This document shows, piece after piece, positions 9,736-59,580 of a stretch of 64,000 bases of DNA (positions are counted from its first letter, which is position 1; the number at the start of each line of letters is the position of its first letter). The stretch is from assembly GCA_902766785.1 (NCBI GenBank), contig CACXEO010000080.1, positions 17,332-81,331 on the forward strand, given 5' to 3'. The position numbers and the translations under genes were made by a program. The notes under the pieces were generated by a model. That model was not told the origin of the DNA. It saw only the letters and a program-made list of their open reading frames with translations, and did not search any database. The stretch is from Oscillospiraceae bacterium (GTDB lineage Bacteria; Bacillota; Clostridia; Oscillospirales; Ruminococcaceae).

Positions 9736-11451
9736 TCATGCTAGAAGGCCGCTAAAATCGTCCGCCAGCTTCTGCTGGAGAGCTTTGGCCTCATCCTCGC
9801 CCGTTCCGGTCGTTGTATAATAAACCTTGATCTTCGGCTCTGTTCCGGACGGACGAATGATCACGCTCGCCCCTTTTTCCATTTCAAAGACCAATACGTC
9901 GGACTTGGGCAGGGTGATCTCTTCCTGCGCTCCGGTAACAAGATCGGTTGTTTTGGAAGCTTTGTAATCCGAAAACTTGAGCACCTTCAGCCCGCCTATT
10001 TCTTTGGGGGCGTTTTCACGGGTGCGGGCCATAATTTCGGCCATTTTCTCCATTCCGGCAGCGCCTTCGAACCCAAAGTTGCCGATGCAGTTATAATAGT
10101 AGCCGTATTTTTTATAAAGGCCGCGGATAGCGTCCAACAGGCTGATCCCTTTTGATTTGTAGAAAGCGGCCGCTTCACAGATCAGCATCGAGGCGACGAC
10201 GGCATCTTTGTCACGGACGTAGGTGCCGCTTAAGTAGCCGTAGCTTTCCTCAAAGCCGAACAGGTAACGTTCACTCTCCCCCTTTGCTTCGAGCAGGCCG
10301 ATCTGCTCTCCAATGTACTTGAACCCGGTCAGTACGTTGCGAAGTTCCACGCCGTATTCTTCTGCAATCCGGTCGGCCAGCTTGGTGCTGACAATGGTCT
10401 TGACCGCAATGGGGTTCTTCGGCATGGTGCCGAGAGCTTTGCGTTCGCCGCAGATGTATTCAAGGAGCAGCGCACCAACTTCGTTTCCGGTGATCAGCAC
10501 ATATTCGCCGTTTTCATCCGGAACCGCAATCCCCATCCGGTCGGCATCCGGGTCTGTCGCCAGCAAAAGGTCTGGCTTCACCACGGCACAGTCGCGCAGA
10601 CCGAGAGTCAGCGCCTCTTTGATTTCAGGATTCGGGAAAGGACAGGTGGGGAACTCACCGTCCGGCAGCTCCTGCTCTTTGACAACATGAACGTCCTTGA
10701 CGCCAATCCGGTCCAGGATCTTCCGGACGGGCTTGTTGCCTGCGCCGTTGAGAGGGGTATAGACTACCCGGAGCCCCGCCCCCGGAATCAGCTCCGGATG
10801 GATGCTCTGTGCCTGTACACAGTCAAGATATTTTTCAAGCACCGCGTCCGGGATGTACTCTACGTTCCCAGCCTCAACAGCCGCGTGAAAATCCACCAAA
10901 CGGATATCGGTAAACAGGTCGAGCTTGTTGATCCGCTCCAGAACCGCATCGGCGGCCTCGTTGGTCATCTGGCAGCCGTCCGGCCCATAGACCTTGTAGC
11001 CGTTGTATTTGGCGGGGTTGTGGCTGGCCGTCACCATAATGCCCGCGTCGCACTTAAGTTCGCGGGTGGCAAAAGACAGACAAGGAACAGGATGAAGCTC
11101 TTTGTAAAGGTGGACATGAATGCCGTTTGCAGCAAGCACCCGCGCCGCCTCTTTTGCAAATACATCCGATTTGATGCGGCTGTCATAGCTGATGGCAACC
11201 GAAGGTTCCTTAAATGCGGAATTGAGATATTCCGCAAGACCCTGGGTCGCGCGCCGGACGGTATAAATATTCATCCGGTTGGTGCCGGCGCCGATGACGC
11301 CGCGCAGCCCGGCAGTCCCAAATTCAAGGTCACGGTAAAAACGGTCTTTAATCGCCTCGTCATCCCCGTTAATTGCCGCGAGCTCCTCTGCAAGGTCGTT
11401 GTCCTCCAAAGACTGCTCAAGCCAATGTTTGTACTTCAGGTATTCAGACAT
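9736..11451 (-). CDS. pgcA: Phosphoglucomutase / phosphomannomutase (alpha-D-phosphohexomutase).
   Basis: 571 aa. Active-site loop TASHNPAKYNGYKV, a metal-binding DPDADR motif, and a C-terminal GTEP loop. Confidence 0.85.
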   Translation of the reverse strand: MSEYLKYKHWLEQSLEDNDLAEELAAINGDDEAIKDRFYRDLEFGTAGLRGVIGAGTNRMNIYTVRRATQGLAEYLNSAFKEPSVAISYDSRIKSDVFAKEAARVLAANGIHVHLYKELHPVPCLSFATRELKCDAGIMVTASHNPAKYNGYKVYGPDGCQMTNEAADAVLERINKLDLFTDIRLVDFHAAVEAGNVEYIPDAVLEKYLDCVQAQSIHPELIPGAGLRVVYTPLNGAGNKPVRKILDRIGVKDVHVVKEQELPDGEFPTCPFPNPEIKEALTLGLRDCAVVKPDLLLATDPDADRMGIAVPDENGEYVLITGNEVGALLLEYICGERKALGTMPKNPIAVKTIVSTKLADRIAEEYGVELRNVLTGFKYIGEQIGLLEAKGESERYLFGFEESYGYLSGTYVRDKDAVVASMLICEAAAFYKSKGISLLDAIRGLYKKYGYYYNCIGNFGFEGAAGMEKMAEIMARTRENAPKEIGGLKVLKFSDYKASKTTDLVTGAQEEITLPKSDVLVFEMEKGASVIIRPSGTEPKIKVYYTTTGTGEDEAKALQQKLADDFSGLLA

Positions 11452-11488
11452 AACAGTTCCCCCATCCTATTTATTAAATAGCCGCTCC

Positions 11489-12661
11489 TTACGGCGTTAC
11501 ATATTCCTCAAGTTTCAGCGTGTCCAACGCTTTTTCCGCCGCTTCAGCCATGGAGGCGTCAGTGAACACGGGCAGTACCCGCGCCGCGCCGGTAACCTTT
11601 GAACGGTAGGCCCCCATAATCTGGCTGACGGCCTTCTGGGGATCAGAGAAATTCACAGAGGTCTCTCCGATCGTAAGGCTTGCGCCAAAGGTGGCAAAAT
11701 CAAGCTCCGGCGCCACGTTTTTGACATTGAAACCGGACGGATCCCCTCCAAACCAGGATTCATTCAGGCCGAAAGCGGCAGAAACCGGATACGAAATAAA
11801 GACCGTAGCACCTTTTTCTTCCGCCTCTGTTTCACAGCGTGCAATAAAGTTATTCAGCGCCTGCTGCTGGGTGACGCCTTCCGCCTCGCTCCCCATATTG
11901 GCGGAGGAGAAAACGCGGACCTCCGGGAATTCCACTTTATGCCATATAATGGTGTCGAACCCTTTTGAGACAAGCTCATTTTGCAGGGCGATCAAATAAT
12001 CACAGGCCACTTTTTTATAAGGGTTGAGCCACGGCTTACCGCCGTTATCAACGGCGTTATCCCACCAGGCAGAGTTGCTGTTTTCATACAGGTAACCGTT
12101 GTTGCGGGCAGCATTCGGCGCGGTTTTATCCATAAATGCGCTAAGTTTTGCAACCGGTTTGAACCCAGCTTCCTTAATCGTTTCCACAACCTGGTCAATT
12201 TCCACCGCGTCATCAGATACTGCGCCGTATTCCTCTGCCTGTACAACAGATGAACGGTACCAAAGGGTTCCCGCCGTGTCCTTAAGTTCCAGCACAACCG
12301 CATTTGCGCCTTTAGCCTTGGCCGAAGACAGGAAAGAAGAGAGAGCGGACGGGTTCTTTGCCGTTTCGACCGGCAGGTTCACCGCCTGGAGCGTTTCATC
12401 TTCCGCCTGGGCGCCACCCGAAGAATCCTCCGATGAACTGCTGTCCACACTTACAATTGAACTGGAATCATCGGAAGGAGGAGTCGGCTCAATCCGCCCG
12501 TTGATAAAATCCAGAAAAGGGCCCGCCACGCTGTAGCCGACAAAAACAACCGCCGCAATAATGACAACAAATCCTGTAATTTTCAAAACCTTCGTCCGGG
12601 TGCTCCCCCGGCTCCGGTAAATCTTGTTATAACGCTTTATTTTTCTTGGCTTATTTCTCAT
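11489..12661 (-). CDS. Membrane-anchored putative glycoside-hydrolase-like (DUF4015 / GHL-type TIM barrel) protein with a Ser-rich linker.
   Basis: 390 aa. N-terminal Arg/Lys-rich region plus a single TM. An SDDSSSIVSVDSSSSEDSSGG linker is followed by a domain carrying NAVVLELKDTAGTLWY, typical of DUF4015 proteins. Confidence 0.5.
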   Translation of the reverse strand: MRNKPRKIKRYNKIYRSRGSTRTKVLKITGFVVIIAAVVFVGYSVAGPFLDFINGRIEPTPPSDDSSSIVSVDSSSSEDSSGGAQAEDETLQAVNLPVETAKNPSALSSFLSSAKAKGANAVVLELKDTAGTLWYRSSVVQAEEYGAVSDDAVEIDQVVETIKEAGFKPVAKLSAFMDKTAPNAARNNGYLYENSNSAWWDNAVDNGGKPWLNPYKKVACDYLIALQNELVSKGFDTIIWHKVEFPEVRVFSSANMGSEAEGVTQQQALNNFIARCETEAEEKGATVFISYPVSAAFGLNESWFGGDPSGFNVKNVAPELDFATFGASLTIGETSVNFSDPQKAVSQIMGAYRSKVTGAARVLPVFTDASMAEAAEKALDTLKLEEYVTP

Positions 12662-12705
12662 CGGAACACCATCCTAACCTCTTTTATCCGTCTTTCTCCA
12701 AGCGG

Positions 12706-13323
12706 TCAATAGGGCAGTTGATGCCCCACAAGGCCATAAAAAGCCAGCGACAGCAGCCCAATATAAATTAAGAGTACGGGAAAACCACGGAAAGCTCTGG
12801 GAATTGCGACGCTGTACAGGTAATTATACGCGACCGAAATAAAGAAGGTTGCCAGCGTAAAACCAATTCCCGCTCCCAACCCAAACCCGATTGAAGAGCC
12901 AAGGGTCATCTGCTCACCCGCCACCAAGAGGAGTGTGCCCAAAACCACGCAGTTAAACGCACTGATGTGAATCATCGGCTTGACTTTACTCTTCAACCGC
13001 TCCGGGAAATAGCCACAGACAACCAGAGCCAAAAGGTAAACTACGCTGATAGCCGCCACATAGATAAGCGGGCGGTAATACTGGGCATTTGGAAATTCCT
13101 TAATTACAGGTTCCAGCAGGAACGTGACAATTCCCGCAAGAACCGTGATCACCGTCAAAATAGAGCCAAAGAGAAGAAGGCTGTTTTTCTTGCGGATAAT
13201 CACAAGCGCCGTACTGGTGCCCAGCGCCCTGGAAAAGATCATATTTTCAACTAAAAGCATAACCAAAGACATGGTGAAGCAATTAGACAAAAACATTCCA
13301 ACTGTATTTTCAAAATCATTCAT
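12706..13323 (-). CDS. RnfA/NqrE-like polytopic membrane subunit.
   Basis: 205 aa. C-terminal RAFRGFPVLLIYIGLLSLAFYGLVGHQL matches the RnfA tail APFRG...AGLMSLAFMGFSGL. Six predicted TM helices. Confidence 0.75.
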   Translation of the reverse strand: MNDFENTVGMFLSNCFTMSLVMLLVENMIFSRALGTSTALVIIRKKNSLLLFGSILTVITVLAGIVTFLLEPVIKEFPNAQYYRPLIYVAAISVVYLLALVVCGYFPERLKSKVKPMIHISAFNCVVLGTLLLVAGEQMTLGSSIGFGLGAGIGFTLATFFISVAYNYLYSVAIPRAFRGFPVLLIYIGLLSLAFYGLVGHQLPY

Positions 13324-14062
13324 CCGCCGCCACTCCCTTCTGCAGAGAAGCCTGCGTTTTCTTCGGCTTTATAGCAGGCGCCGGAACGGTTTGATAGCCA
13401 AAAGGCTGTGTGCCGTCGGACAAATCCAGAATATCATCCTTGTCCATAGGTATTAAATAATTCCTGTATTTATGCAAAAGCGCTGCCAAAAAACCCACAA
13501 TAATAAACCCGGAAAACGGGAGCAGGACCCCCATAATGGGATTTTCCACAAAAGCGAGCTGATTCCCCCAAAGCGTCCCATTACCCCAAACCTCACGCAC
13601 CGCCCCGACTACGCAGATTACCGCCCAGAAACCGAGAATGTGAAAGAACAAATCGAGCGCCATCCGGGGCTTTGTCTCTTTGTGAAAACGCGACTCACTT
13701 CGCCATACAATCAGCGAGTTTGTAATCATCAGCGGCAAAAATACGCCGAGCTGGTAACTGGTCCCGGGAAACCACAGGTCTATGAGCATCGCCGTTGGGA
13801 TATACAGTGCCCCCGCAAAGAGCACCGCTATGATAACGCGGAGGGAGTGGGGTATATTTTTCGGAATAAACGACGTGACAAAAACTGTAAAAAATGTGAG
13901 GACGCTGAACGCGAGCGCGAGCGCAACGCCGTTTTTCAGACTGCTGCTGACCACCACAACGGGCGCTACAACCAGCCCTTTTTCCAACACGGTATTTTTT
14001 AAAAGGAACCCGTCGATAGTATCAAAAACACTTTTATGTTCCCTATAAAAACGGTTATTCAT
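13316..14062 (-). CDS. RnfE/NqrD-like polytopic membrane subunit.
   Basis: 248 aa. FLPLMITNSLIVWRSESRF and AVREVWGNGTLWG match RnfE FIPLIVTNCIVVGRAEAF and AIREILGNGTLF. Overlaps its neighbours by 8 nt on each side. Confidence 0.75.
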   Translation of the reverse strand: MNNRFYREHKSVFDTIDGFLLKNTVLEKGLVVAPVVVVSSSLKNGVALALAFSVLTFFTVFVTSFIPKNIPHSLRVIIAVLFAGALYIPTAMLIDLWFPGTSYQLGVFLPLMITNSLIVWRSESRFHKETKPRMALDLFFHILGFWAVICVVGAVREVWGNGTLWGNQLAFVENPIMGVLLPFSGFIIVGFLAALLHKYRNYLIPMDKDDILDLSDGTQPFGYQTVPAPAIKPKKTQASLQKGVAADE

Positions 14063-15080
14063 CCGCCGCCACCTCCGGAGTTAATTCTTCCAGCCGGTTT
14101 TTCTCCCCGTTGGGGGATTCCGCCGCGGTTTTTGCCCGGTAACGGGCAACAATCCTCGCACCGGCGCGGTCAAAGGACGGCGCCAGCGCATTTGCAATCA
14201 GCAGCGGGAAAACAACGCTCACTTCGCTGACGGCGAGGTAGCGTACAGCCATGGTGCCAAGGCCGATTATCAGGCCGTACAGCACCTGCCCCCAACCGCT
14301 CTTAGGCGAAGTAACCGGGTCGGACGCCATAAAGACGACTGCAAAAACAAAAATACCGCTGACCAGCTCATATACAACTGAATGGAAACCATCAACACCC
14401 GTTCTGGGAAACAGGAATGCAACAACCGAGAAAGACAGCCCGGCGCTTAAAACAATCCGCCAGGCAATGGTTTTGCGGACCACAAGATAGAGCGCGCAGG
14501 CGGCGATCACCAAAATCGCCGTCGCGCCAATTGGCCCCGAATAGTTGATGAGAAGCGTGTTCATTGTGTTGATCGCGGGACTGCCGCCTGCATGGAGTAC
14601 CGCCCCGGGGGAAGTTTGCAGCGGCGCTGTTACCGGGTCAAACCAAGATACCAGCGTATAAGGAGCCGGGTATTGAAAGAGCAGTGACGGAAAACTGATA
14701 GCGGCAAAAGCAAGCCCCGCAGCCGCAGGATTGAAAACGTTTTTTCCGTTTCCTCCAAAGGGAAATTTAGCTACAACAATCGCAATCAACATACCGTAAA
14801 CAGAAACCCAGTAAGGAGTTGCCGCCGAAAGGCAGAGTGTAAAAACCACTGCGGTCAGAACCGGTTCTAAAGAGAGGCGTTCTCCCTTCTTTTTCCCCAG
14901 AAACCGCATACAGAAATACTCAAATATCACAGCGATCAGCACCGTGAACGCTATCATAAACAGCACCCGAAGGCCATACAAATATATTGACATTGCAAGC
15001 ACCGCAAACAATGTGAGCAGCAGATCCGTTTTCTGTGATTTTGAAGCTTTATACAGCACGGTCAATGAACCTCCTTTCAC
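14055..15080 (-). CDS. RnfD/NqrB-like membrane subunit. The annotated GTG start overlaps its own Shine-Dalgarno, so the true start is probably the TTG or GTG around 15059-15065.
   Basis: 341 aa. FGGNGKNVFNPAAAGLAF (NqrB/RnfD GGxGxNxFNPA) and FMASDPVTSP motifs. Preceded by an extended -10 TGCTATAAT near 15098-15106. Confidence 0.75.
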   Translation of the reverse strand: MKGGSLTVLYKASKSQKTDLLLTLFAVLAMSIYLYGLRVLFMIAFTVLIAVIFEYFCMRFLGKKKGERLSLEPVLTAVVFTLCLSAATPYWVSVYGMLIAIVVAKFPFGGNGKNVFNPAAAGLAFAAISFPSLLFQYPAPYTLVSWFDPVTAPLQTSPGAVLHAGGSPAINTMNTLLINYSGPIGATAILVIAACALYLVVRKTIAWRIVLSAGLSFSVVAFLFPRTGVDGFHSVVYELVSGIFVFAVVFMASDPVTSPKSGWGQVLYGLIIGLGTMAVRYLAVSEVSVVFPLLIANALAPSFDRAGARIVARYRAKTAAESPNGEKNRLEELTPEVAADE

Positions 15081-15216
15081 TGGATTACATATGATGGATT
15101 ATAGCAAAATTCTTTTTGCCGGAAAACATGTCGGCGGCATCGCCCTCCGGCTTTATTAAAATGCGGCTGAAACCGCGGAACGCCTTGCAGCACAAACAAG
15201 GAAAGGCCGCAGCCGT

Positions 15217-16795: not shown

Positions 16796-17929
16796 ATGCA
16801 GCAGAAATCATTTGAAAAAATGGGGATTGAAGTCTCCCGCCTAGGATTTGGATGTATGCGTTTCCCCACAAAGGCCGACGGTAAAATTGACCGCGAAAAG
16901 TCCCTGGAACTGATCGACTACGCATACCGCCACGGCGTAAATTATTTTGATACCGCCTACCGCTATCATGAAGGTGAATCGGAGGAATTCGTAAAGGAAT
17001 CTCTTTCCCGCTATCCCCGTGAATCCTATTATCTTGCAACCAAGTTTCCAATTGGCTTTATGCCTGAGGTTTCTGAAGCCGCCGTCGACAAAATTTTTGA
17101 CGAGCAGCTTGAAAAAACGGGGGCCGGTTATTTTGATTTTTACCTGGTACATGCCCTGAGCGCACCGAACTTCAAACGGATGAAGGAACTGAAAGTACTG
17201 GAAAAACTGGAAAAAAGAAAAGCAGCGGGGCAGATTAAGCATTTGGGCTTCTCGTTCCACGACACGCCGGAAGTCCTCAAGGAAATTGTGGATTATTATG
17301 ACGGCTGGGAGTTCTGCCAGATTCAGCTTAATTATCTTGACTGGACTTATCAGGACGCAAAAAGCCAGTATGATATTCTGACGAAAAAGGGGATTCCCGT
17401 TATTGTCATGGAGCCGGTCCGCGGCGGGGCTTTTGCCGATCTTGGGAAAGAATCCAACGAGCTGCTGAAGGCGGCACGGCCGAACGATTCGATCGCTTCC
17501 TGGGCAATGCGGTACTGCGGCTCCCTTGACAATGTCCACATCATCCTCAGCGGGATGACCGAAATGGAGCAGGTGGTGGACAACGTCAAGACCTTTGAAA
17601 ATTTTGAACCGTTTACCGAAAAGGACTATGAGCTGATTGACGAGGTTCTGAAAATCAGGGAAAAAACCCGCACCATCCCCTGTACTTCCTGCCGATACTG
17701 TGTGGAGTACTGCCCGCAGAATCTTGATATTCCCGAGCTGTTCTCAATGTACAACCGCTACATGATCACCGGTTCTACATATGGTTTAAACGAAGATGTT
17801 TCCTCTTGCGAAGAGGATCGTCTCCCCGCCAGCTGCATCGGCTGCGGCGCCTGCGCGGAGCACTGCCCGCAGAAGATTGAAATCCCGAGCCGGATGGGGG
17901 ATATTGACCAGGCGATTAAAGCGCTGTAA
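16796..17929 (+). CDS. Aldo/keto reductase fused to a C-terminal 2x[4Fe-4S] ferredoxin-like domain.
   Basis: 377 aa. AKR N-terminus (GFGCMRFP...NYFDTAYRYHEGESE) and C-terminal CTSCRYCVEYCP...CIGCGACAEHCP. Confidence 0.8.
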   Translation: MQQKSFEKMGIEVSRLGFGCMRFPTKADGKIDREKSLELIDYAYRHGVNYFDTAYRYHEGESEEFVKESLSRYPRESYYLATKFPIGFMPEVSEAAVDKIFDEQLEKTGAGYFDFYLVHALSAPNFKRMKELKVLEKLEKRKAAGQIKHLGFSFHDTPEVLKEIVDYYDGWEFCQIQLNYLDWTYQDAKSQYDILTKKGIPVIVMEPVRGGAFADLGKESNELLKAARPNDSIASWAMRYCGSLDNVHIILSGMTEMEQVVDNVKTFENFEPFTEKDYELIDEVLKIREKTRTIPCTSCRYCVEYCPQNLDIPELFSMYNRYMITGSTYGLNEDVSSCEEDRLPASCIGCGACAEHCPQKIEIPSRMGDIDQAIKAL

Positions 17930-43918: not shown

Positions 43919-45331
43919 TTAGTTTTTATCTGTTGACGAGATATCGACAAACTTTGATTTATCCGGGTCTTTATCGGCTTTCTTGCCGAGAAATTCCGGA
44001 AGCTCCATCCCCGCCATATTAAACAGCTCACTCATTGGAGGAATGGATTTCATCATGCTGGACACAAAATTCGCCGTACTGGAAGCCCCGTCTTTGCCGC
44101 CTAAGCTGTCCCAGACAGTGACCTTGTCGATCTTCAGGTTCTGGATGGCCTCAACCTGGGTCTTGACCAGCTCTTCCAGCTTGTCGGCAATCATCAGCCT
44201 CATGGCGTCGTTTGCATTGCCGCCAGCCGCTGCAACAATCTGGGAAAGACCGGAGGCCTGCTTGGTGAGCATTTCCTGTACACCGCGGGCTTCCGCTTCC
44301 ATTTTGGCATAGATCGCGTCTGCTTCACCCTTGGCACGGCGGCGAATCTGCTCAGCTTCGGCTTCAGCCTGAAGTTCCATTCTGCGTTTCTCAATTTCCG
44401 TTTTAACAATGATATCGGCTTCCTGCGTGGCCCTTTCACGGGCGGCACGGGCCTGCTCAGCCTCCTGCTCGGCCACATAAGCTTCCTGAAGCGCCCTTGC
44501 CGATTGGATCTTCTCAGCGGCAGTCGCGCGGCGCTGAGCGTCAGCGGCTTTTTCTGTCAAGGTTGCGTTGGACTCGGCAATTTGAGCTTTCGCCTCATTT
44601 TCACCCTTAATTGCTTCAGAATCGGCCAACGAAACCTGCACCCTCTGTTCACGGTAAGCGTTCGCTTCACCAATGGCACCCGACCGGTCGGCTTCCGCAA
44701 CTGAAATTTTCGCGTCGTTAATAGCTTTTGCGGCCGCCTCTTTACCAAGAGCGGAAATGTACCCGGACTCATCGGTAATATCGGTGACGTTTACGTTGAT
44801 CAGCCGCAGGCCAATTTTTTTGAGCTCCGACTCAACGTTATTGGATACAGCGGCAAGGAATTTGTCGCGGTCGGTGTTGATCTCTTCAATCTCCATGGTG
44901 GCAATGACCAGGCGCAACTGACCGAAGATGATATCCTTCGCAAGCTCCTGGATTTCATTCAGTTTCAGGCCGAGCAGGCGCTCCGCGGCGTTCTGCATAA
45001 CACCGGGCTCCACTGAGATGCCTACGGTAAAACGGGACGGAACGTCAATACGGATGTTCTGCTTGGACAGGGCGTTTTTCAGGTCTACCGAAATTGAAAG
45101 CGGGGTCAAATCCAGGTATTCATATGCCTGGAGGACCGGCATGATAAACGCCGCGCCGCCATGGATACACTTAGCGCTGCGGTAAGTGCCGTCCTTATTG
45201 GAGCCGACCTTACCATAAACCACCAAAATTTTATCGGACGGACATTTACGGTACCGGGACAGAATGACGATAATTGTGGTCAGCACCAGAACGGCGATAA
45301 CCGAAACTAAAATAACTATGACTGGATCCAT
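43919..45331 (-). CDS. floT: Flotillin (SPFH/band-7; FloT/YuaG-like) with a long Ala/Glu-rich coiled coil.
   Basis: 470 aa. N-terminal TM, an SPFH domain, and EA-repeat coiled coil (AEQEAEQARAARERATQEAD...). Confidence 0.85.
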   Translation of the reverse strand: MDPVIVILVSVIAVLVLTTIIVILSRYRKCPSDKILVVYGKVGSNKDGTYRSAKCIHGGAAFIMPVLQAYEYLDLTPLSISVDLKNALSKQNIRIDVPSRFTVGISVEPGVMQNAAERLLGLKLNEIQELAKDIIFGQLRLVIATMEIEEINTDRDKFLAAVSNNVESELKKIGLRLINVNVTDITDESGYISALGKEAAAKAINDAKISVAEADRSGAIGEANAYREQRVQVSLADSEAIKGENEAKAQIAESNATLTEKAADAQRRATAAEKIQSARALQEAYVAEQEAEQARAARERATQEADIIVKTEIEKRRMELQAEAEAEQIRRRAKGEADAIYAKMEAEARGVQEMLTKQASGLSQIVAAAGGNANDAMRLMIADKLEELVKTQVEAIQNLKIDKVTVWDSLGGKDGASSTANFVSSMMKSIPPMSELFNMAGMELPEFLGKKADKDPDKSKFVDISSTDKN

Positions 45332-46005
45332 TGAGAAATACCCCCTCTGTTATTTGTTTTTTCGTCCGGCAGTTCGACCAAAACCGTCTGCTCGTCTACC
45401 ACGCCACAAACGCGGATTAACGCACCGGTCTTAATCTGCTGTGCGGCCTTTGTCACCGCGTCCAGTTCCACCAGACGTTCCTGCAGCATCACTGTAACCT
45501 TCCCCTGGCCTCCTTCCTTTGGTGGAACGGGGAGGTATACCTTACCAGTTTTCCCCACCGCGTTCCTAATATCAAGATTTCCTCTATCCTGAAGCTTTAA
45601 AGCCGCTTTAAACATATATGCAACCCCCACCAAAGCGGCTGTGCCGGCGGCAAAAGCAATAACAACTGCCCAAAACGGGCCGGTGTACTTGACCAAAGCA
45701 AGGCCCAGCCAGCCGCCGACCGCAAAAAATGCAACCAGGCCCCGGATGGTAAACAGCGAAAGGCCGCTGTCAGCGTCGGCAACATCGTGCATATCCATAT
45801 GACCAGCGTCCCCGGCTGAACCGGCGTCAAAATCCGCGCTGAGATCAGTATCCAAGCCCCCCGCGTCGGCTTCGCCGCCGCCGAACCCAATGCCGAACAA
45901 CAGCAGGATGGACTGAATGACCAGCACCACCGTAGCCGCAATTGCAATACATGCAAATACCTGTTCCAGAATGGTCAGACTGTTCCACCAAGCCAACATT
46001 TCCAT
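45316..46005 (-). CDS. nfeD: NfeD-like membrane protein (YuaF-like) with a C-terminal OB-fold. Overlaps floT by 16 nt.
   Basis: 229 aa. Two membrane segments, an acidic linker, and a C-terminal beta-barrel region (KVTVMLQERLVELDAVTKAAQQIKTGALIRVCGVVDEQTVLVEL). Confidence 0.7.
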   Translation of the reverse strand: MEMLAWWNSLTILEQVFACIAIAATVVLVIQSILLLFGIGFGGGEADAGGLDTDLSADFDAGSAGDAGHMDMHDVADADSGLSLFTIRGLVAFFAVGGWLGLALVKYTGPFWAVVIAFAAGTAALVGVAYMFKAALKLQDRGNLDIRNAVGKTGKVYLPVPPKEGGQGKVTVMLQERLVELDAVTKAAQQIKTGALIRVCGVVDEQTVLVELPDEKTNNRGGISQWIQS

Positions 46006-46057
46006 TTCTCCTTTCTTCCGCCGTATCTGTCCGCCAAGCGGTTTATAACACTGTTCA

Positions 46058-46624
46058 TCACTCGCCTATATCCTGCAAAACCGTTTCGCAGAGGCGGTCA
46101 GCCCGTTTTTTTACAATTGCAGAGGCATAATAAATTAATATGATTTCCATCCCGTTAATTAGACGTTCCCGCGCGCCGGGGAAAGGCTCGCAATAGTCGG
46201 ATATTTCTCCGGCAATCATCCTGCGGAATTCCTCGTCGGACAAAATCGTCTCGTAATCCACCCGGTCCAAAATGGCGCAAAGATAATAATAAAGCCGCGC
46301 TTCTGATACAACGTTATCCTGTTCGTTCCCCGCCTCCCCGTTAATGTAGGTGAGCAGGGATGCGATCGTTTCAAGCTTCATAACGCCGCGCAGCATATTG
46401 ATGATGATAATCCGGGCAAGATGATCCACGCCATAGCGCTTATCCACAGGCTTCTGAACCCATCCGCGGTTGACCCAGTTCTGGATTGCCGGCGTTTCAA
46501 GTCCGGTTATTTCGCGCACCTGGGCAAGCATCAGCCCTTTGGTTACAGTACAGACGCCGAACAAAAACTCTTCCGCGTTCTGGCCGTTCCGCTCTATGAC
46601 TGTTCCGGGAAAATACGTCTTCAT
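46058..46624 (-). CDS. DUF1836-family protein with a MerR-like N-terminal HTH. The start was refined to MKTYFPG, preceded by AGGAGGT.
   Basis: 188 aa. TVTKGLMLAQVREITGLETPAIQNWVNRGWV (HTH). It is the first gene of the floT operon. Confidence 0.5.
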   Translation of the reverse strand: MKTYFPGTVIERNGQNAEEFLFGVCTVTKGLMLAQVREITGLETPAIQNWVNRGWVQKPVDKRYGVDHLARIIIINMLRGVMKLETIASLLTYINGEAGNEQDNVVSEARLYYYLCAILDRVDYETILSDEEFRRMIAGEISDYCEPFPGARERLINGMEIILIYYASAIVKKRADRLCETVLQDIGE

Positions 46625-46656
46625 ATCGGCACCTCCTACTCTGCTGTTATGATTAT

Positions 46657-46676
46657 AGCAAACATTCAATTGAATG
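46657..46676. promoter_or_regulatory. 14-bp perfect palindrome CATTCAATTGAATG upstream of the DUF1836-nfeD-floT operon (candidate operator).
   Basis: Read directly in the sequence, about 35 bp upstream of the DUF1836 start. Confidence 0.4.
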
Positions 46677-46848
46677 TCAATAAGGTTCCTTAGAAATTTT
46701 ACAAAACCTATAACAACAATCACCTTCATAAACTCAAGTCATTAGATTCAAAGCCTGTACCAGACCAGCCGAGTGCAGTTTATATACACAATATCATTTC
46801 TACACTTAACCAGTAAGTTTTTCCTGCATTTTTACAAATTTCTTATTT

Positions 46849-47112
46849 TCAGTCAACTTTAGCAGAATAAAGGAAGTCGCCGGGTTTTGCCTCCGCCAGC
46901 CTTTTGATACAGCGCTCACAAATGAAATATTCGCCGATCCGCACCAAGCCGGAAGCGGCATTGCAGATGATACACCCGTCAACTGCCTTCCTGATTACAA
47001 TTTCCTGATACGCCAGTTCCACCTGTAACTCGTCTTGCTCCCCCAGCTCCAGGTATTCCCTTATAATTTCAGGCAGTGTAATACGCCCCTGGGAATCCAT
47101 TTTTATCCGCAT
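46849..47112 (-). CDS. AbrB/MazE/SpoVT-type swapped-hairpin DNA-binding domain fused to a C-terminal CxxC...CxxC zinc ribbon.
   Basis: 87 aa. MRIKMDSQGRITLPEIIREYLELGEQDELQVELAYQEIVIRKAV followed by CIICN...CERC. Confidence 0.5.
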   Translation of the reverse strand: MRIKMDSQGRITLPEIIREYLELGEQDELQVELAYQEIVIRKAVDGCIICNAASGLVRIGEYFICERCIKRLAEAKPGDFLYSAKVD

Positions 47113-47231
47113 AGCAATACCTCCCGCTAAATATTACGAACCCAACATGGGTTCATAATTACATATTAGCATATAGCGAACCTAAAATAAACCTATAGTA
47201 GGTTCTTGATGGGTTCTTTTAGGAGGCAGCT

Positions 47232-47417
47232 ATGAAGAAGAACGAAAAGCATTTATCTCTCAGAATTGATGCTGACTTGCTGCAAAAGTTTAGTTATGTA
47301 GCCAAGTATGATGACCGCTCTATGAATTGGATGCTTTTAAACTTTGTTCGAAGATGTATTGACGAGTTTGAAAGAGAACACGGTAAAATACCCGAAAATT
47401 TAGAAAACAAAAATTAA
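47232..47417 (+). CDS. Small ribbon-helix-helix (CopG/Arc-like) protein.
   Basis: 61 aa. LSLRIDADLLQKFSYVAKYDDRSMNWMLLNFVRRCIDEF. Strong RBS AGGAGG and an immediate terminator. Confidence 0.5.
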   Translation: MKKNEKHLSLRIDADLLQKFSYVAKYDDRSMNWMLLNFVRRCIDEFEREHGKIPENLENKN

Positions 47418-47444
47418 AGGCGAGGACAGTTGTCCTCGCCTTTC
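47418..47444 (+). terminator. Terminator hairpin directly after the RHH gene.
   Basis: AGGCGAGGACA-GT-TGTCCTCGCCT followed by TTTCAT. Confidence 0.6.
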
Positions 47445-47446
47445 AT

Positions 47447-47752
47447 AACCCCCAGCCGCCTGACGATGACAGCCCCTTACAAAAGGGGGCTTGGAGCGTT
47501 CAATTAAAACACGTACGGCCAAAAACATGTGGAAAGAAACCATGTACGATTCGCAAATTGCCCGCCGGGATTCCCTGCATCCTCCTTTTGTAAGGAGGCG
47601 GCACACGGAGTGCGGCGGAGGATTGCCTATAAGGAACATGGCGTCTCGCGGGCGGAAAACGTTTTTCCTTTTCTCACCTTCAATGCGCGGATTGTCTTGC
47701 CCGGCCACGGGCAAACCCTGACGAAGGGGTGCCGTCCGTACCCCAGGCAGAA
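47447..47752. ncRNA. Candidate structured noncoding region of about 300 nt between two convergent terminators. Family and strand are unknown.
   Basis: No credible ORF. Multiple GC-rich local hairpins (AGCCCC-TTACAAAA-GGGGCT; CCTCCTT-TTGT-AAGGAGG; TTGCCCG-GCCA-CGGGCAA) and long-range complementarity (GCATCCTCC...GGAGGATTGC). Confidence 0.3.
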
Positions 47753-47753
47753 T

Positions 47754-47788
47754 CAAAAAACACGCTGTATAAAACAGCGTGTTTTTTG
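47754..47788 (-). terminator. Bidirectional terminator ending the ydjH-like operon.
   Basis: AAAAAACACGCTGT-ATAAA-ACAGCGTGTTTTTTG. The minus-gene stop overlaps the T-run. Confidence 0.85.
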
Positions 47789-47789
47789 A

Positions 47790-48623
47790 TTAAAATCCCC
47801 TCGTGCCGCCGCCATGGGTACGGCCGCTGCTTGAGGTATGGGTGGAACTTCTTCCGGAAAACCCACCCGATGAGCGGGAACCGCCCGAAGGAGGATTTGA
47901 GTTAATCCTCCGGCTGGTGACCGTCTGGTTGATGAAAACATCTTCGCTTCTGGTGAGCTTTATCTCGCTCTTTTCACGGAAAGGATAGCTGTTCCGGTCC
48001 GCTTTTTTCCGATAGCGGACAAAGACGACGGCACAGCAGACCACACCGGCCGCAACGGCGATCAGTGCAAAAATGAAAATCTCCTGAACGGAGAGGCTTT
48101 TTTCCCGGGTTATCTTGCCGGTTTCCGTATCATAGTTGTGCTGGTCACTGGGAATCCCGGTTTTCATATACTCCTCAGCGCCGTCCAGAAAAGCTTTTGC
48201 CGCCCCGGCGTAATCACCGCCGCTGACATAGCCGTAGGCTCGGTCTAAAAGGGCTTCAATCCGCTCATCAGTAAAATACCGCACGCCGTCCGCATGGGTC
48301 GAAATACCGAGATTGCGGTTATCCATGTCGATCAGGAACAAAACGCCGCTGTCATCCCCGCCCGCGCCGTATCCATGAAAATCATAATAATCGTCAGCGT
48401 AGGCCTGGGTATCCTTCCCCTGCGCGTCATCTGTTGTGACAAAGACAAAATCCATGTTGGGATAAGTTTCACAAAGCGCGGCGATCTGCTCTTCCAGCCC
48501 GTCTGCCTCTTCGTCCGTCAGAAACCCTGCTTCATCTATAACACGGGGCTCTGCCGCAGCAGCCGGGAGGACAAAAAAGATTATCAGAAGCAAGGAGAGG
48601 CCATAACCGATCAAACGTTTCAT
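47790..48623 (-). CDS. ydjH: TPM-domain membrane protein (B. subtilis YdjH-like) with a Gly/Ser-rich C-terminal tail.
   Basis: 277 aa. Signal/TM, then a TPM domain (IDEAGFLTDEEADGLEEQIAAL...FVFVTTDD...GVLFLIDMDNRNLGISTHADG), a second TM, and a GGSRSSGGFSGRSS tail. Overlaps the next gene by 4 nt (ATGA). Confidence 0.65.
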   Translation of the reverse strand: MKRLIGYGLSLLLIIFFVLPAAAAEPRVIDEAGFLTDEEADGLEEQIAALCETYPNMDFVFVTTDDAQGKDTQAYADDYYDFHGYGAGGDDSGVLFLIDMDNRNLGISTHADGVRYFTDERIEALLDRAYGYVSGGDYAGAAKAFLDGAEEYMKTGIPSDQHNYDTETGKITREKSLSVQEIFIFALIAVAAGVVCCAVVFVRYRKKADRNSYPFREKSEIKLTRSEDVFINQTVTSRRINSNPPSGGSRSSGGFSGRSSTHTSSSGRTHGGGTRGF

Positions 48624-49675
48624 AACAGGTACCCTCCCAACCCCAGCAGAAGAAAAAGCCCTGCCGCAACAGAACCGAACAAAATTGCAAGCCGTTTCCA
48701 GCTGACCGGCAGCCTGCCGCAGACTTTTCCGTTCTGTCCATTCATCACATAATAGTAAAGCTCATCATTTCGGCGGTAAGTTAAAGCCCAAACCGGGAGA
48801 AGGACGTACTGCGCATCCTCCCTTTCGGGCTTTATACTGGTGTTTTGAAGCTGAACCGCTGTATACCCGGTCATGGTTCCCCGCAGCAGGGCTTGGGTGT
48901 ATTCATTTATGTCATACTGCGCTTCTTTAAAAACCGCATCTTTATCAATATCCCTTTTTTCGGCCTGAAAGCCGGAAAGGTAAGCCATGGTAAAGTCCTG
49001 TACCGCCCCGCTGTCAAAAGGCTGAATCCCCTCTGCCAGCTCCCGGTTTGCCTTGGTCAGCGCGTTTTTCAGCAAATCCCTGTACCGGATTTTCCCCTCC
49101 CGCACCAGGCGGTAAAAGCTGGTTTGGGTATATTCGGTGTTACCGGTGCGCCAGACCAGCACCTTCTGGGCGGACGCCTCTACAGCCGCATCCACAGTGC
49201 AGTCCAGGATCCAATAAGGGTAATAAACACCGGTCAGTTTTTCAAGCTGCGCTTCGCTGAAAAAATCCCTTGGGACAAAGCGTTTCTTTTTTATCCAGGA
49301 AAGGAATTCTTGCACCGCCTCCTCCCGGCTGATCCGGAACGGAACAACCTTATCCGGGCGGAAAGCGCCGTCCAGCCGTCCGGAGAGGACAACCGGATTA
49401 TGGCAGTAAAAGCAGGTGGTAGCGGCCGTTGTGGAATCGGTTACGATTTCCGCACCGCAGCTGGGGCAGACAAAGAACGCCGCCTCACCTTCCACCGCTT
49501 CATGTTTTTCCTCTGCCTGCGGCTCTGCCGTCTCAGCGCTGCTTTCGTCCTGCTTTTTCAGGTCTTCTTCCGCAAAGAAGGAGCCGCAGTAATGGCAGGC
49601 AAACCTCTGTGCAGTCGGGTCAAAGACCAGTTCGCCGTCGCAGTTGGGGCATTTATAGGTCACAACCGAAGCCAA
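48620..49675 (-). CDS. ydjG: Double zinc-ribbon protein with a C-terminal TM helix (B. subtilis YdjG-like).
   Basis: 351 aa. CPNCDGELVFDPTAQRFACHYCG and CPSCGAEIVTDSTTAATTCFYCHNP, with a C-terminal LAILFGSVAAGLFLLLGLGGYLL. Confidence 0.6.
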   Translation of the reverse strand: MASVVTYKCPNCDGELVFDPTAQRFACHYCGSFFAEEDLKKQDESSAETAEPQAEEKHEAVEGEAAFFVCPSCGAEIVTDSTTAATTCFYCHNPVVLSGRLDGAFRPDKVVPFRISREEAVQEFLSWIKKKRFVPRDFFSEAQLEKLTGVYYPYWILDCTVDAAVEASAQKVLVWRTGNTEYTQTSFYRLVREGKIRYRDLLKNALTKANRELAEGIQPFDSGAVQDFTMAYLSGFQAEKRDIDKDAVFKEAQYDINEYTQALLRGTMTGYTAVQLQNTSIKPEREDAQYVLLPVWALTYRRNDELYYYVMNGQNGKVCGRLPVSWKRLAILFGSVAAGLFLLLGLGGYLL

Positions 49676-49721
49676 ACCGTCTCACACCCCCCGTTCGTCT
49701 TCATCTCAGGGATCACTTTTC

Positions 49722-51029
49722 TCATTTACGATCCTCCGGGCCGATCGGATCGCCGCACTCGGGGCAGAACTTGGGAATCGGCAGAGACATATCCGGCTCA
49801 TAGCCGCATTTATCACATTTAATTTGTGTGGAATCCGGTTTTGCCTTGCCGCATTCCGAACAGAATTTGCCGCTGTTTTTACTCCCGCAGCTGCAAACCC
49901 AGCTGTTATCCTCCGGCTTCGGCTTGCCGCACTCGCTGCAAAACTTCCCCGTATTTACAGCGCCGCATCCGCATTTCCAGCCCTCGGCAGCAGGAACCGG
50001 CGGCACAGCCGGCGCCGCCGCTCGGTTCGCCGCCATCTGCTGCTGGTTGGACTGGGACGCCGCGCCCATAAATCCGCCGCCGGCCTGCATTCCAACGCCC
50101 ATCCCCATGAACCCGGCCATACTGCCGTTTGCGTTGGAGCCCGCCGCCTCCATGCCGCGCGCTACCGCACCCTGGACGTATCCTTCCCGGACGTTCGGGT
50201 CGCCCAGCATCGCGCCCTGGTTGCGCATGTTAATCAGCTTCTGCGACCCCTCGTCATATGAAATACTTGCAATGCCGACCGACTGAACCTCCATCCCGCG
50301 GAGCTGGTTCCAGCTCTCGTCCAGGATGGTGCTCATATACTGGCTGAGCTCCCTTCCTTTAGAGGGGACGAAGGAGATCCGGACGCCGTCGGCAGACATC
50401 TGGTTGATCGCCGCCTGAAGGGCTTCCAAAAACTCTGAAAAATACTGTTCGTTAATGTCGTTAATATCCACGATATCCCGGTCACGGGGAATCGCCTCGC
50501 TGTAAAACTTAATCGGATCCTTGATTTTAATCGAATAGGTTCCATGGGTGCGCAGAAACAGCTCAGCGTTATAAAAATTGTCAAAGTAATTGATTGGGTT
50601 CCGGGTACCGAACTTGATCCCCTTGATCTCCTGCAAATTGATATAATAAACCTTCTGGAGCGTCGGGGTTACGCCGCCGTACTTGAAACGGCTGAATGAT
50701 TCCTTGAGGGTGTCGCCAAACTGGCCGTTGAAAAGGGAAGGCAGGGAGGAATTGTTGACGGTGTAGTACCCTTCCTCCGCTGTGTAGTCTACGATTTTCC
50801 CGCCGTCTACCAGCATCATGAACTGGTTCGGATAAACATGGATGACCGAACCGTTTGAAACGGTGTTGTCCGTCCCCTTGGTGTTGCTGTTACGGCCATC
50901 CCCCCGGCGCACCTTGACTCCGCTTGTAAACACGGTTGTATCGCTCATCCGGTCGGGCTCTAAAACCTCCAGCCACTGGTCAGCCAGCCCGCCTCCGACA
51001 GCGCCGGCTAACGCTTTGATCATTCCCAT
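49722..51029 (-). CDS. ydjI: YdjI-like SPFH-superfamily (virion-core-like Band_7_1) protein with C-terminal tandem zinc ribbons. In B. subtilis this family is a PspA membrane-anchoring partner.
   Basis: 435 aa. MGMIKALAGAVGGGLADQWLEVLE..., RRGDGRNSNTKGTDNTVSNGSVIHVYPNQFMMLVDGGKIV, a Gly/Met-rich linker, and GWKCGCGAVNTGKFCSECG...WVCSCGSKNSGKFCSECG...CDKCG...CPECG. Confidence 0.8.
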   Translation of the reverse strand: MGMIKALAGAVGGGLADQWLEVLEPDRMSDTTVFTSGVKVRRGDGRNSNTKGTDNTVSNGSVIHVYPNQFMMLVDGGKIVDYTAEEGYYTVNNSSLPSLFNGQFGDTLKESFSRFKYGGVTPTLQKVYYINLQEIKGIKFGTRNPINYFDNFYNAELFLRTHGTYSIKIKDPIKFYSEAIPRDRDIVDINDINEQYFSEFLEALQAAINQMSADGVRISFVPSKGRELSQYMSTILDESWNQLRGMEVQSVGIASISYDEGSQKLINMRNQGAMLGDPNVREGYVQGAVARGMEAAGSNANGSMAGFMGMGVGMQAGGGFMGAASQSNQQQMAANRAAAPAVPPVPAAEGWKCGCGAVNTGKFCSECGKPKPEDNSWVCSCGSKNSGKFCSECGKAKPDSTQIKCDKCGYEPDMSLPIPKFCPECGDPIGPEDRK

Positions 51030-51068
51030 CTGATGTTCCTCCTGTCTCTTGATTTACTGTTTATTTCA

Positions 51069-51096
51069 AGGGCGTTCCGCAAAACGGAAACGCCCT
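51069..51096 (-). promoter_or_regulatory. Hairpin between the lead gene and the ydjI-like gene (possible attenuator or processing stem).
   Basis: AGGGCGTT-CCGCAAAACGGA-AACGCCCT, immediately 3' of the stop of the 51098-51853 gene. Confidence 0.35.
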
Positions 51097-51097
51097 T

Positions 51098-51853
51098 CTA
51101 GCGCACCTCGTAATAGCGGTTAATGGTCCACGCGTATTCGTTGACCTCTTCCACAGCACCTCCACAGTATTCACAGACTTTTACACCCAGCCCCGTAACC
51201 GGTGCGCCGCAGCTGGGGCAGGTCAGCCCCGCTGCCTTGCCGCCTGAAACTGCGCCGTATTTTGCGGCGTCCTGAATATAGACAAGCTCCGTGTTATACT
51301 TTGTCTGAACCGTTTGTTCCCTGTCGCCAGAGACCAAGGCGCCGTCTTTTTCCGTAAAATAACGGTGACCCACGGCGCTCTGCAACGTTACGGTACAGCA
51401 CCCGCCGCCCTTTCGGTAGCCCGAAATTTCGGTTTGATGGATCTGGACGTCCAGATATTGCCGCCGGAGGCCGTTTCGCCGGTCTTCCTGAATCCCGAGC
51501 GAGACTTGCTTTTTCAGCTCCGCAGAGGCGTTTGTCAAAAGATCCGGATTCTGCTCAGACACTGCCGCAAAGGCCGACTTCAGCATGTTTTCAGCCTTTT
51601 GCTTAAACTCCCCATAGTGGAACGCAGGAAAATCCTCCGCAATTTGCGGCAGGTAAATTTTTGTCATGCCGGAAACCGATTTAGGCGTTTCTGAAAGCCT
51701 CTCACGCTGGAGTTCGAACCCTTTCAAAAGGGAGTCCGTTCCAAACGCGGAACGGGAAAACCGCCGCAGCTTCCGCACTCCTGCATAAACCAAAATGGCT
51801 CCTGCCGTTACAACGACCACCGCCGCAACTGCCAAATAAACAAACCACTCCAT
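51098..51853 (-). CDS. Hypothetical N-terminally TM-anchored protein with a C-terminal zinc ribbon (possible Tim44-like middle domain). It is the first gene of the ydjI/G/H-like operon.
   Basis: 251 aa. FVYLAVAAVVVVTAGAILVYAGV TM, and a C-terminal CPSCGAPVTGLGVKVCEYCGG. Extended -10 TGTATAAT upstream at about 51895. Confidence 0.4.
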   Translation of the reverse strand: MEWFVYLAVAAVVVVTAGAILVYAGVRKLRRFSRSAFGTDSLLKGFELQRERLSETPKSVSGMTKIYLPQIAEDFPAFHYGEFKQKAENMLKSAFAAVSEQNPDLLTNASAELKKQVSLGIQEDRRNGLRRQYLDVQIHQTEISGYRKGGGCCTVTLQSAVGHRYFTEKDGALVSGDREQTVQTKYNTELVYIQDAAKYGAVSGGKAAGLTCPSCGAPVTGLGVKVCEYCGGAVEEVNEYAWTINRYYEVR

Positions 51854-59205: not shown

Positions 59206-59580
59206 TCACCTTATTTTTTGCCGTTCCCGGCGCTTTCGTTCCCGCTCAGATTTTCGCCTTGCATAGATCCGGCAAGCATCCGAACAATATGCCTGGCTGG
59301 TGGTGGGAAGATATGCCTTCCCACACACCGGGCAGTTTTTTTGACGCATGGAAGTATCTTCGCCTGTAATGGCAGCTTCCAGCGCCGGATCCGTTGGCAG
59401 CAAGGCATCCCGGAAGTACCGGCACAGTGACCCGGTCCACCATTTGTTCAGCATATAGCAGGGGCAGTCCAGCGGAAGACATATCTTGTCCGTACTGTCA
59501 TAGTTGGCGCAATGACCAACCAGGTGCCGGATCGCCGCACGTTCCGATCTTGTCAGTTCCCGCGAAACCGGGGCGCTCAT
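59206..59580 (-). CDS. Cysteine-rich KTR-type protein (a common conjugative-element cargo in Firmicutes).
   Basis: 124 aa. CANYDSTDKICLPLDCPCYMLNKWWTGSLCRYF and CPVCGK...CSDAC, with a basic C-terminus. Confidence 0.5.
   Translation of the reverse strand: MSAPVSRELTRSERAAIRHLVGHCANYDSTDKICLPLDCPCYMLNKWWTGSLCRYFRDALLPTDPALEAAITGEDTSMRQKNCPVCGKAYLPTTSQAYCSDACRIYARRKSERERKRRERQKIR

Follow-up and report, generated by a model that had tools for sequence, protein, structure and literature searches.

A mis-annotated gene module of gut Clostridia: a diverged Rnf-like membrane core conserved beside a DUF4015 protein

Introduction

Known relatives of the proteins considered here are the subunits of the Rnf complex (RnfCDGEAB), a ferredoxin:NAD+ oxidoreductase that translocates Na+ or H+, and of Na+-NQR (NqrA-F). 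In the Rnf complex of Acetobacterium woodii, from whose structure paper the functional residues and cluster ligands used below were taken (10.1101/2024.06.21.599731), the [2Fe-2S] cluster is held by C25 and C113 of RnfA and by C25 and C108 of RnfE, and the covalent flavin mononucleotide (FMN) of RnfD is carried by Thr156 within the sequence D-T-V-T-T-A-T. The motif for flavinylation by ApbE is D-x-x-[S/T]-G-A-[S/T] (PMC12052999). The present work concerns a gene module in which homologs of RnfD, RnfE and RnfA, hereafter D', E' and A', precede a gene for a DUF4015 protein. It was analyzed in a 64,000-nucleotide stretch of Oscillospiraceae bacterium DNA (assembly GCA_902766785.1, contig CACXEO010000080.1, positions 17,332 to 81,331 of the forward strand), referred to below as the window, and in related genomes. 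An earlier note on this DNA had proposed that the trio lacks RnfC, RnfG and RnfB and forms one envelope-related operon with the DUF4015 gene and the phosphoglucomutase gene pgcA.

Extra D/E/A sets have been reported in Faecalibacterium. F. duncaniae A2-165 carries an additional rnfDEA (CG447_09840-830) beside a complete rnfCDGEAB, counted as a second rnf operon, and F. butyricigenerans and F. longum have two copies of RnfA, RnfD and RnfE versus single copies of RnfB, RnfC and RnfG. DUF4015 is mentioned in a single paper in the searchable literature, where it is found fused to the YkyA/PdcF membrane tethers of cell-wall enzymes (PMC12700454), and Cwp19, a protein of similar fold, is a peptidoglycan lytic transglycosylase (PMC6016235). 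No description of a D'E'A'-DUF4015 system was found in the searchable literature; the claim that the system is not a described one thus stands for the arrangement, but has to be tempered by the extra rnfDEA noted in passing in Faecalibacterium.

Results

D'E'A' is a diverged paralog of the Rnf membrane core under strong purifying selection. It is encoded within five consecutive open reading frames (ORFs), all on the minus strand and located where the earlier note had placed them. The features of the cluster, in the direction of transcription, are:

15106-15098, minus strand: extended -10-like element (TG-c-TATAAT) upstream of the RnfD-like gene; a consensus match only, with no good -35.
14055-15059, minus strand: D', an RnfD/NqrB-like integral membrane protein of 334 residues from GTG at 15059 (mechanical ORF 14055-15080, 341 residues); PF03116, 1e-61.
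14055-14076, minus strand: D'/E' junction, GGAGGTGGCGGCGGATGAATAA, with a Shine-Dalgarno-like GGAGG and a start ATG that overlaps the stop.
13316-14062, minus strand: E', an RnfE/NqrD-like membrane protein of 248 residues with a C-terminal extension of ~45 residues; PF02508, 3e-31.
13316-13337, minus strand: E'/A' junction, GGGAGTGGCGGCGGATGAATGA, read from the sequence.
12706-13323, minus strand: A', an RnfA/NqrE-like membrane protein of 205 residues; PF02508, 5e-23.
11489-12661, minus strand: type-II-anchored extracytoplasmic DUF4015 protein (glycoside hydrolase-like TIM barrel) of 390 residues; PF13200, 3e-26.
9736-11451, minus strand: PgcA-like enzyme of the phosphoglucomutase/phosphomannomutase family, 571 residues, with PGM_PMM domains I-IV.

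Comparison of the three membrane proteins with profile models gave a divided answer as to their identity. Their membership in the Rnf/Nqr families is far beyond chance according to Pfam, with scores well above the gathering thresholds (209 versus 27.7 bits for PF03116; 109 and 82 versus 23.8 bits for PF02508), and the top matches of D' in the PDB are the RnfD chains 7zc6_D and 9eri_D (1e-24 to 1e-25). Every NCBIfam Rnf or Nqr model, however, scores far below its cut-off: 155 bits versus 207 for D' with rnfD (TIGR01946), 93 versus 213 for E' with rnfE (TIGR01948), 71 versus 229 for A' with rnfA (TIGR01943), and 100-111 bits for nqrB, 69-78 for nqrD and 43 for nqrE versus cut-offs of 235-414.

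Functional residues were compared by alignment to the solved Rnf complexes of Clostridium tetanomorphum (7ZC6) and A. woodii (9ERI), and were tallied across the family using 65-76 members from related genomes. Three of the four [2Fe-2S] cysteines are gone in the window trio: in E', C25 is replaced by Ala33 and C108 by Ser116, and in A', Ser37 stands in place of one cluster cysteine, the first, and Cys125 is kept as the other. Across the family, the first RnfE position is occupied by A, P or G, the second by T or S, and the first RnfA position by S, with the second RnfA cysteine still present in 51 of 73 sequences. At the position of the FMN-bearing threonine, D' has a serine within T-A-P-L-Q-T-S, which misfits the ApbE motif; serine occupies this position in 46 of 66 D' sequences, and a motif compatible with ApbE ([ST][GSTA]A[ST]) occurs in only two of 65. 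Because three of four cluster cysteines and the ApbE motif have been lost, the trio cannot, as judged from these alignments, conduct electrons through the membrane in the manner of a ferredoxin:NAD+ oxidoreductase. This loss of cofactor sites, a point missed by the earlier note, is the real reason why the trio is no Rnf. The gating leucines, Asn107 of RnfE and Asn112 of RnfA are retained, and E' of the window, like part of the family, also keeps the R67/E115 pair of RnfE. When the window genes were compared with those of three relatives, the ratio of nonsynonymous to synonymous substitution rates (dN/dS) was 0.08-0.15 for D', E', A' and DUF4015 alike (0.09-0.15 for D'). With dN/dS this low the trio is not a locus in decay, and with these ligands lost it is not a functional path for electrons through the membrane; its sequences suggest that it is probably a repurposed pump core rather than the Rnf complex that database labels make of it.

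The subunits that would supply electrons are likewise missing from the window. Pfam scans covered its larger non-overlapping ORFs, most of at least 170 residues, with ORFs below ~170 residues outside the scan; among them, no RnfC, RnfG (FMN_bind), RnfB or ApbE was found, and a tblastn search of the window with the RnfC-like protein of relatives gave no match. The absence of RnfC, RnfG and RnfB beside or between the three genes, and hence of any ordinary electron input or output, was therefore confirmed at this level.

To place the module in a wider context, a genome collection was scanned with an RnfD' alignment, giving matches in at least 522 stretches. The top 80 of these, all from Oscillospiraceae, Ruminococcaceae or unclassified Clostridia and including Anaerotruncus, Bittarella, Youxingia, Negativibacillus, Hydrogenoanaerobacterium and Paludicola, were studied by tblastn with the window proteins and by ORF calling. 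The order D'-E'-A'-DUF4015, on one strand, was found in 68 of the ~70 informative loci among these 80; ten loci without DUF4015 reach a contig edge too early to judge, and DUF4015 is truly missing from two (L060 and L065). Overlaps of 4 or 8 nucleotides (nt) between D', E' and A' recur in many loci, the DUF4015 start lies mostly 3-120 nt past A', and the order persists at amino-acid identities of 26-40%. Several loci have the sigA-dnaG block in inverted orientation while the module stays. The trio is present in at least 80 species-level genomes and in hundreds of protein clusters. As read from these loci, conservation comes down to a minimum of D'E'A' plus DUF4015; the association of the trio with DUF4015 that the earlier note had seen in one genome is thus a tightly spaced and general one, and the window fits it, without the upstream RnfC-like gene described below.

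A few loci depart from this pattern. At L084 (8716-12985), and in L060 of the same type, both with many close relatives, the RnfC-like protein is longer (430 residues, with weak RnfC_N and Complex1_51K signals), the RnfD flavinylation site reads T-A-A-S, the first RnfE cysteine is kept and a Cof-type HAD hydrolase takes the place of DUF4015; this type may be an evolutionary intermediate. In L065 (3017-7822), from a low-GC metagenome-assembled genome, the RnfC-like gene, D' and E' are followed directly by a GyrA/ParC-like gene, without A' or DUF4015; the locus has either truly been reduced or been misassembled. In L087 (5221-6939), mecA does not intervene between rpe and the RnfC-like gene, which lies 12 nt downstream in the same orientation; in some lineages, rpe may therefore be co-transcribed with the module.

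A truncated RnfC-like gene (RnfC') lies directly upstream of D' in 60 of the 80 loci, at a spacing of -17 to +50 nt. Its core of ~340-360 residues contains an SLBB domain, aligns with A. woodii RnfC only from residue 156 on, and carries two CxxCxxCxxxC ([4Fe-4S]) motifs in 57 of 57 sequences; the Gly-rich FMN loop is missing, and the NGAECEPY motif has become D-A-x-D-D-E-P-Y. The 20 loci without RnfC' comprise the clade of the window, Bittarella and one locus (L077) that is uninformative because its contig starts inside D'; L077 aside, mecA or rpe abuts D' in these loci. Because the C-D-E-A order mirrors that of canonical rnf, the lack of RnfC' in the window is best taken as derived, through loss; the ancestral module is read, from gene order, as C'D'E'A' plus DUF4015, from which the clade of the window would have lost C'.

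Several further observations concern this gene. RnfC' of the Anaerotruncus clade has a C-terminal extension of 500-600 residues, rich in Ala, Glu, Gln and Lys and coiled-coil-like, for a total of up to 976 residues; the long form was seen at L025 7032-9962 (Anaerotruncus colihominis DSM 17241) and also in L017, L023 and L024. One protein of 729 residues (P0238, in the cluster of P0071) has the summed length of an RnfC' (348 residues) and an RnfD' (381 residues), which reflects either a true fusion of C' with D' or a gene call that ran through the 4-nt overlap. In the window itself, two paralogous aldo/keto reductases (16796-17929, plus strand; 53373-54536, minus strand) each bear a C-terminal 4Fe-4S dicluster domain, and their ferredoxin part gave spurious tblastn matches to RnfC-like genes in relatives.

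The DUF4015 protein of the window scores above the PF13200 gathering threshold, and its AlphaFold2 model (mean predicted local distance difference test score, 84) has a basic cytoplasmic N-terminus, one transmembrane helix (residues 21-53), a disordered Ser-rich linker (residues 55-87) and a TIM barrel (residues 92-390), in agreement with the type-II anchor and linker described previously. The sole match in a PDB sequence search was Cthe_0052 (4S1A), an uncharacterized DUF4015 structure. A Foldseek search with the model returned generic glycoside hydrolase barrels, and the nearest characterized structural neighbor is Cwp19, at 12% identity. This likeness of fold points to a hexosamine-containing envelope polymer as the putative substrate. 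Invariant residues of the family include K127, D178, W199, W211, L212, P214 and Y222, and D201 and N213 occur in 90% or more of sequences. No acidic residue besides D178 and D201 is invariant, and the two are no more than candidates for a catalytic role. The cytoplasmic tail follows the motif M-x-K-x-[YF]-K-[IV]-K-R-Y-x-R-I-Y-R and is more conserved than the barrel (average majority fraction 0.53 versus 0.42), which is unexpected for a passive anchor and therefore suggests a specific membrane partner. In L016-L019 and L023-L026, a protein of ~185-189 residues without a Pfam match is encoded -1 to +44 nt after DUF4015, and may be a clade-specific extra component in the Anaerotruncus/Youxingia clade.

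The genes are arranged as the earlier note had described them, with overlaps of 8 nt at D'/E' and E'/A' and gaps of 44 nt from A' to DUF4015 and 37 nt from DUF4015 to pgcA. The true start of D' is almost certainly the GTG at 15059, given that a GGAGG ribosome-binding site precedes it and that the resulting 334 residues match the closest homologs. The two junctions have almost the same 22 nt, GGAGG or GGGAG followed by TGGCGGCGGATGAAT and then AA or GA, and both D' and E' terminate in VAADE. Such near-identical junctions point to translational coupling of D' to E' and of E' to A', and the pair could represent a duplicated or convergently selected coupling cassette. A scan revealed no convincing intrinsic terminator within the cluster, in line with the earlier note, with fewer terminator-like sites than expected from shuffled sequence and one weak hairpin at 11495-11481. 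The proposed promoter near 15100 was recovered as the extended -10-like element, but this remains a consensus match lacking a good -35, and a two-hexamer promoter scan did not register it. A riboswitch or leader RNA was considered as a functional clue and rejected: no Rfam element was found between 9000 and 17000 of the window at E<=1, nor at the module in seven related loci, where tRNAs and one L10 leader were the only elements detected elsewhere. Directly upstream of the module lies a divergent mecA, and downstream are rpmE, yigZ, a dGTPase gene, dnaG and sigA.

The PgcA-like protein contains four PGM_PMM domains and the active-site TASHNP serine loop, the translation reading 'VTASHNPAKYNGYK', but it reaches no NCBIfam equivalog cut-off and its substrate specificity is putative. 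Conservation of the five-gene arrangement was only partial: D'E'A'-DUF4015 is conserved, but pgcA follows DUF4015 in only 13 loci, all of the subclade of the window, plus Paludicola. Other loci have at this position the ~185-residue protein (Anaerotruncus clade), a Nudix gene (4 loci), nucleoside phosphorylase (PNP) and phosphopentomutase genes (L082, L083 and L086) or one of many singletons. Since the gene after DUF4015 varies, pgcA was rejected as part of the conserved system. Its confinement to the subclade of the window and Paludicola makes the tie to a sugar-phosphate enzyme weak; pgcA is a lineage-specific downstream neighbor that is possibly co-transcribed.

Elsewhere in the window, a protein encoded at 54695-55990 (plus strand) combines two LysM domains with a GH18 domain. 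This is presumably the architecture of SleL/YaaH-type spore cortex enzymes, in which case the organism may sporulate. A truncated topoisomerase gene at 59577-62134 (minus strand), retaining the C-terminal part of Topoisom_bac, adjoins an AbiEii toxin and DUF6088 pair and looks like a mobile-element remnant or defense islet. The region 43919-51853 (minus strand) encodes two SPFH/Band-7 proteins together with TPM-domain, zinc-ribbon and DUF1836 proteins and ORFs without a Pfam match, and may be a membrane-microdomain or stress module. The segment 30001-32000, with a GC content of 0.41 versus ~0.50 elsewhere, holds ORFs without a Pfam match and a metallophosphoesterase gene and may be foreign DNA.

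Discussion

The module described here is real, widespread in gut Clostridia and mis-annotated. As to its function, the reading that we prefer, tentatively and with somewhat less than even confidence, is that D'E'A' and DUF4015 join in one membrane complex, in which a core without redox function serves an enzyme that cleaves envelope glycans. Having ceased to be a redox pump, the core would be a transducer that conducts ions or works by alternating access, or else a scaffold; it would position or gate an enzyme acting on peptidoglycan or another hexosamine polymer, following a logic like that by which FtsEX controls cell-wall hydrolases outside the cell. Most relatives would add to this a cytoplasmic RnfC' that has two [4Fe-4S] clusters and no flavin or NADH site, and that might be a structural cap or a sensor of redox state; the clade of the window would operate without it. 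The conserved DUF4015 tail and the near-identical coupling junctions are hints of physical coupling, and the ion-path features (the gating leucines, Asn107 of RnfE and Asn112 of RnfA) are partly retained.

Several observations weigh against this interpretation. The identity of DUF4015 to Cwp19 is only 12%, its substrate and catalysis are putative, and where Cthe_0052 has its candidate catalytic 'DY' the window protein has 'HK', so that its catalytic competence is no more than putative. E115 of RnfE is conserved in less than half of the family, making a common ion-entry site uncertain. The riboflavin-contacting residues N123 and D249 of RnfD are invariant or conservatively replaced in D', and together with the eight Fe-S cysteines kept in RnfC' they leave room for some redox role in the wider family. 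Finally, the series rpe, mecA and module is broadly syntenic in the group, meaning that adjacency may partly reflect shared ancestry, and in the sizeable subclade of the L060/L084 type C'D'E'A' is followed by the HAD hydrolase, not by DUF4015.

A bolder form of the transducer proposal would have the redox-free pump use ion flow or alternating access to switch on the tethered wall-glycan-cleaving enzyme, with Fe-S redox sensing through RnfC' in most lineages. We regard this version as doubtful; if true, it would mean that force transmission comparable to that of FtsEX or Tol/Exb exists in Gram-positive bacteria in a form assembled from components of respiration, and that this form is common among the dominant Clostridia of the gut.

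The extracellular hydrolase-like partner would be conserved equally if the module served glycan salvage, with DUF4015 freeing a sugar or muropeptide, D'E'A' importing it as a Na+/H+-coupled secondary transporter or channel, and the products of downstream sugar genes processing it. In its favor, RnfA and RnfE work by alternating access and their gating Leu and Asn residues persist in the trio, and enzymes of sugar phosphates or nucleosides are often encoded downstream (PgcA in 13 loci; PNP with phosphopentomutase in L082 and L086). However, transport of organic solutes is known for no Rnf/Nqr relative, no substrate site is recognizable in the sequences, and the downstream genes vary and include no associated binding protein or kinase. 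Import in this manner is accordingly judged unlikely.

The possibility that the genes are mere neighbors, preserved by Oscillospirales synteny without functional coupling, with the trio filling an unrelated membrane role such as ion leak or homeostasis, draws on the conservation of rpe and mecA upstream in nearly all loci and on the L060/L084 subclade that lacks DUF4015 at that position. It is made quite improbable by the shared strand and tight spacing (mostly 3-120 nt), by an adjacency that outlasts changes of the downstream gene and of the sigA-dnaG block, and by the conserved cytoplasmic motif on the DUF4015 anchor.

Residual redox activity, in which electrons would pass from ferredoxin through the [4Fe-4S] clusters of RnfC' and the riboflavin of RnfD' to an extracytoplasmic acceptor near DUF4015, the window form being degenerate, is given a slim chance. 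The cluster motifs of all 57 RnfC' sequences, the N123 and D249 riboflavin ligands, the serine that replaces the FMN-Thr in 46 of 66 sequences and the T-A-A-S of the L060 type would all fit such a path. RnfC' is nevertheless missing from the window and its clade, and where it occurs it has lost the Gly-rich FMN loop and changed NGAECEP to DAxDDEP; 63 of 65 D' sequences are without the ApbE motif, RnfG is absent, the window ORFs that were scanned include no ApbE, and no DUF4015 protein is known to bind a redox cofactor.

That the trio is an alternative core of a genuine Rnf, pairing with RnfC, RnfG and RnfB encoded elsewhere for ferredoxin:NAD+ electron transfer, is how public annotation ('RnfABCDGE type electron transport complex subunit D') and the F. 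duncaniae paper, which counts rnfDEA as a second rnf operon, would have it. We consider this very improbable, in view of the loss of three of four [2Fe-2S] ligands and of the flavinylation motif and of scores far below the NCBIfam cut-offs; moreover, the canonical operon, where reported, has its own D, E and A. The Faecalibacterium rnfDEA is probably of the same family as D'E'A'; neither cluster-member names nor a profile search with divergent RnfD' sequences yielded a protein labeled Faecalibacterium, and the locus tags of the trio are absent from the supplements of PMC10781979. Taken at face value, these reports indicate that organisms with a full Rnf can have the bare trio besides, and that it has simply been counted as Rnf; the presence of a complete rnfCDGEAB beside the extra D/E/A speaks for the preferred reading, against the trio being a mere partner for a distant RnfCGB.

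The last alternative, a decaying remnant of a full rnf locus, to which the missing G and B, the missing C of the clade and the lost ligands might be ascribed, can be dismissed, pseudogene decay being effectively refuted by intact ORFs, a dN/dS of 0.08-0.15, presence in at least 80 species-level genomes and preserved translational coupling.

These findings bear on metabolic reconstruction, since pipelines name the D'E'A' proteins Rnf subunits, and energy conservation inferred on that basis for gut Oscillospiraceae and Ruminococcaceae could be wrong. They also outline the stepwise dismantling of a respiratory ion pump, first of G and B, then of the Fe-S and flavin sites of the membrane core, and then of C in some clades; that the core stays under strong selection and gains an extracytoplasmic partner would make it a rare, traceable repurposing of a redox machine. 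The uncharacterized DUF4015 proteins, in turn, are given a defined genetic partner and a testable envelope hypothesis, which can be addressed in cultivable organisms carrying relatives of the module, such as Anaerotruncus colihominis, Hydrogenoanaerobacterium saccharovorans, Paludicola and probably Faecalibacterium.

Comparison with known systems

Among transporter-derived complexes that do not transport, FtsEX controls extracytoplasmic peptidoglycan hydrolases, as with CwlO, PcsB, the EnvC-amidases and RipC. FtsEX is, however, an ATP-driven ABC system with no relation in sequence or fold to D'E'A', and coupling is here only inferred.

The enzyme-like partner of the module has two points of reference. 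Cwp19 of Clostridioides difficile (5OQ2), a GHL10 TIM barrel, belongs to a different Pfam family from the DUF4015 protein and is anchored by CWB2 repeats, whereas the window protein is anchored by its transmembrane helix. Cthe_0052 (4S1A) is of the same DUF4015 family, but its 'DY' is not conserved in the window protein.

Another stripped-down relative of the pumps is the two-subunit Nqr/Rnf-like complex (Meheust et al. 2021; Huang et al. 2024, 10.1101/2024.03.13.584918), whose RnfD-like subunit also lacks the flavinylated threonine. In that complex, the RnfD-like subunit is fused to an NAD-binding domain (PF00175) and paired with a flavinylated subunit of the RnfG/NqrC type, and RnfE and RnfA are lacking; D' of the window, in contrast, has only PF03116 and no adjacent FMN_bind gene, and is accompanied by E', A' and DUF4015. 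The Faecalibacterium rnfDEA, in a member of the same taxonomic order, is likewise a D/E/A trio without C, G or B, found alongside a full rnfCDGEAB; the papers that report it treat it as an Rnf oxidoreductase, with loss of cofactor sites and a link to DUF4015 unmentioned.

Of the complete pumps, Na+-NQR has in NqrB, NqrD and NqrE the homologs of D', E' and A', but the module is without NqrA, NqrC and NqrF, has lost the cofactor sites and scores lower with the Nqr than with the Rnf models. The other complete pump is Rnf itself (7ZC6, 9ERI, 8AHX), to whose subunits D', E', A' and the RnfC' of relatives are homologous, with the C-D-(G)-E-A order kept. The six subunits encoded together, the four [2Fe-2S] cysteines, the FMN motif of RnfD and the scores above NCBIfam cut-offs by which Rnf is recognized are not found in the window. 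In their stead, the module has a core with one of the four cysteines, no RnfG or RnfB and, in relatives, an RnfC' devoid of the FMN/NADH loop, and the place of rnfB is occupied by the DUF4015 gene.

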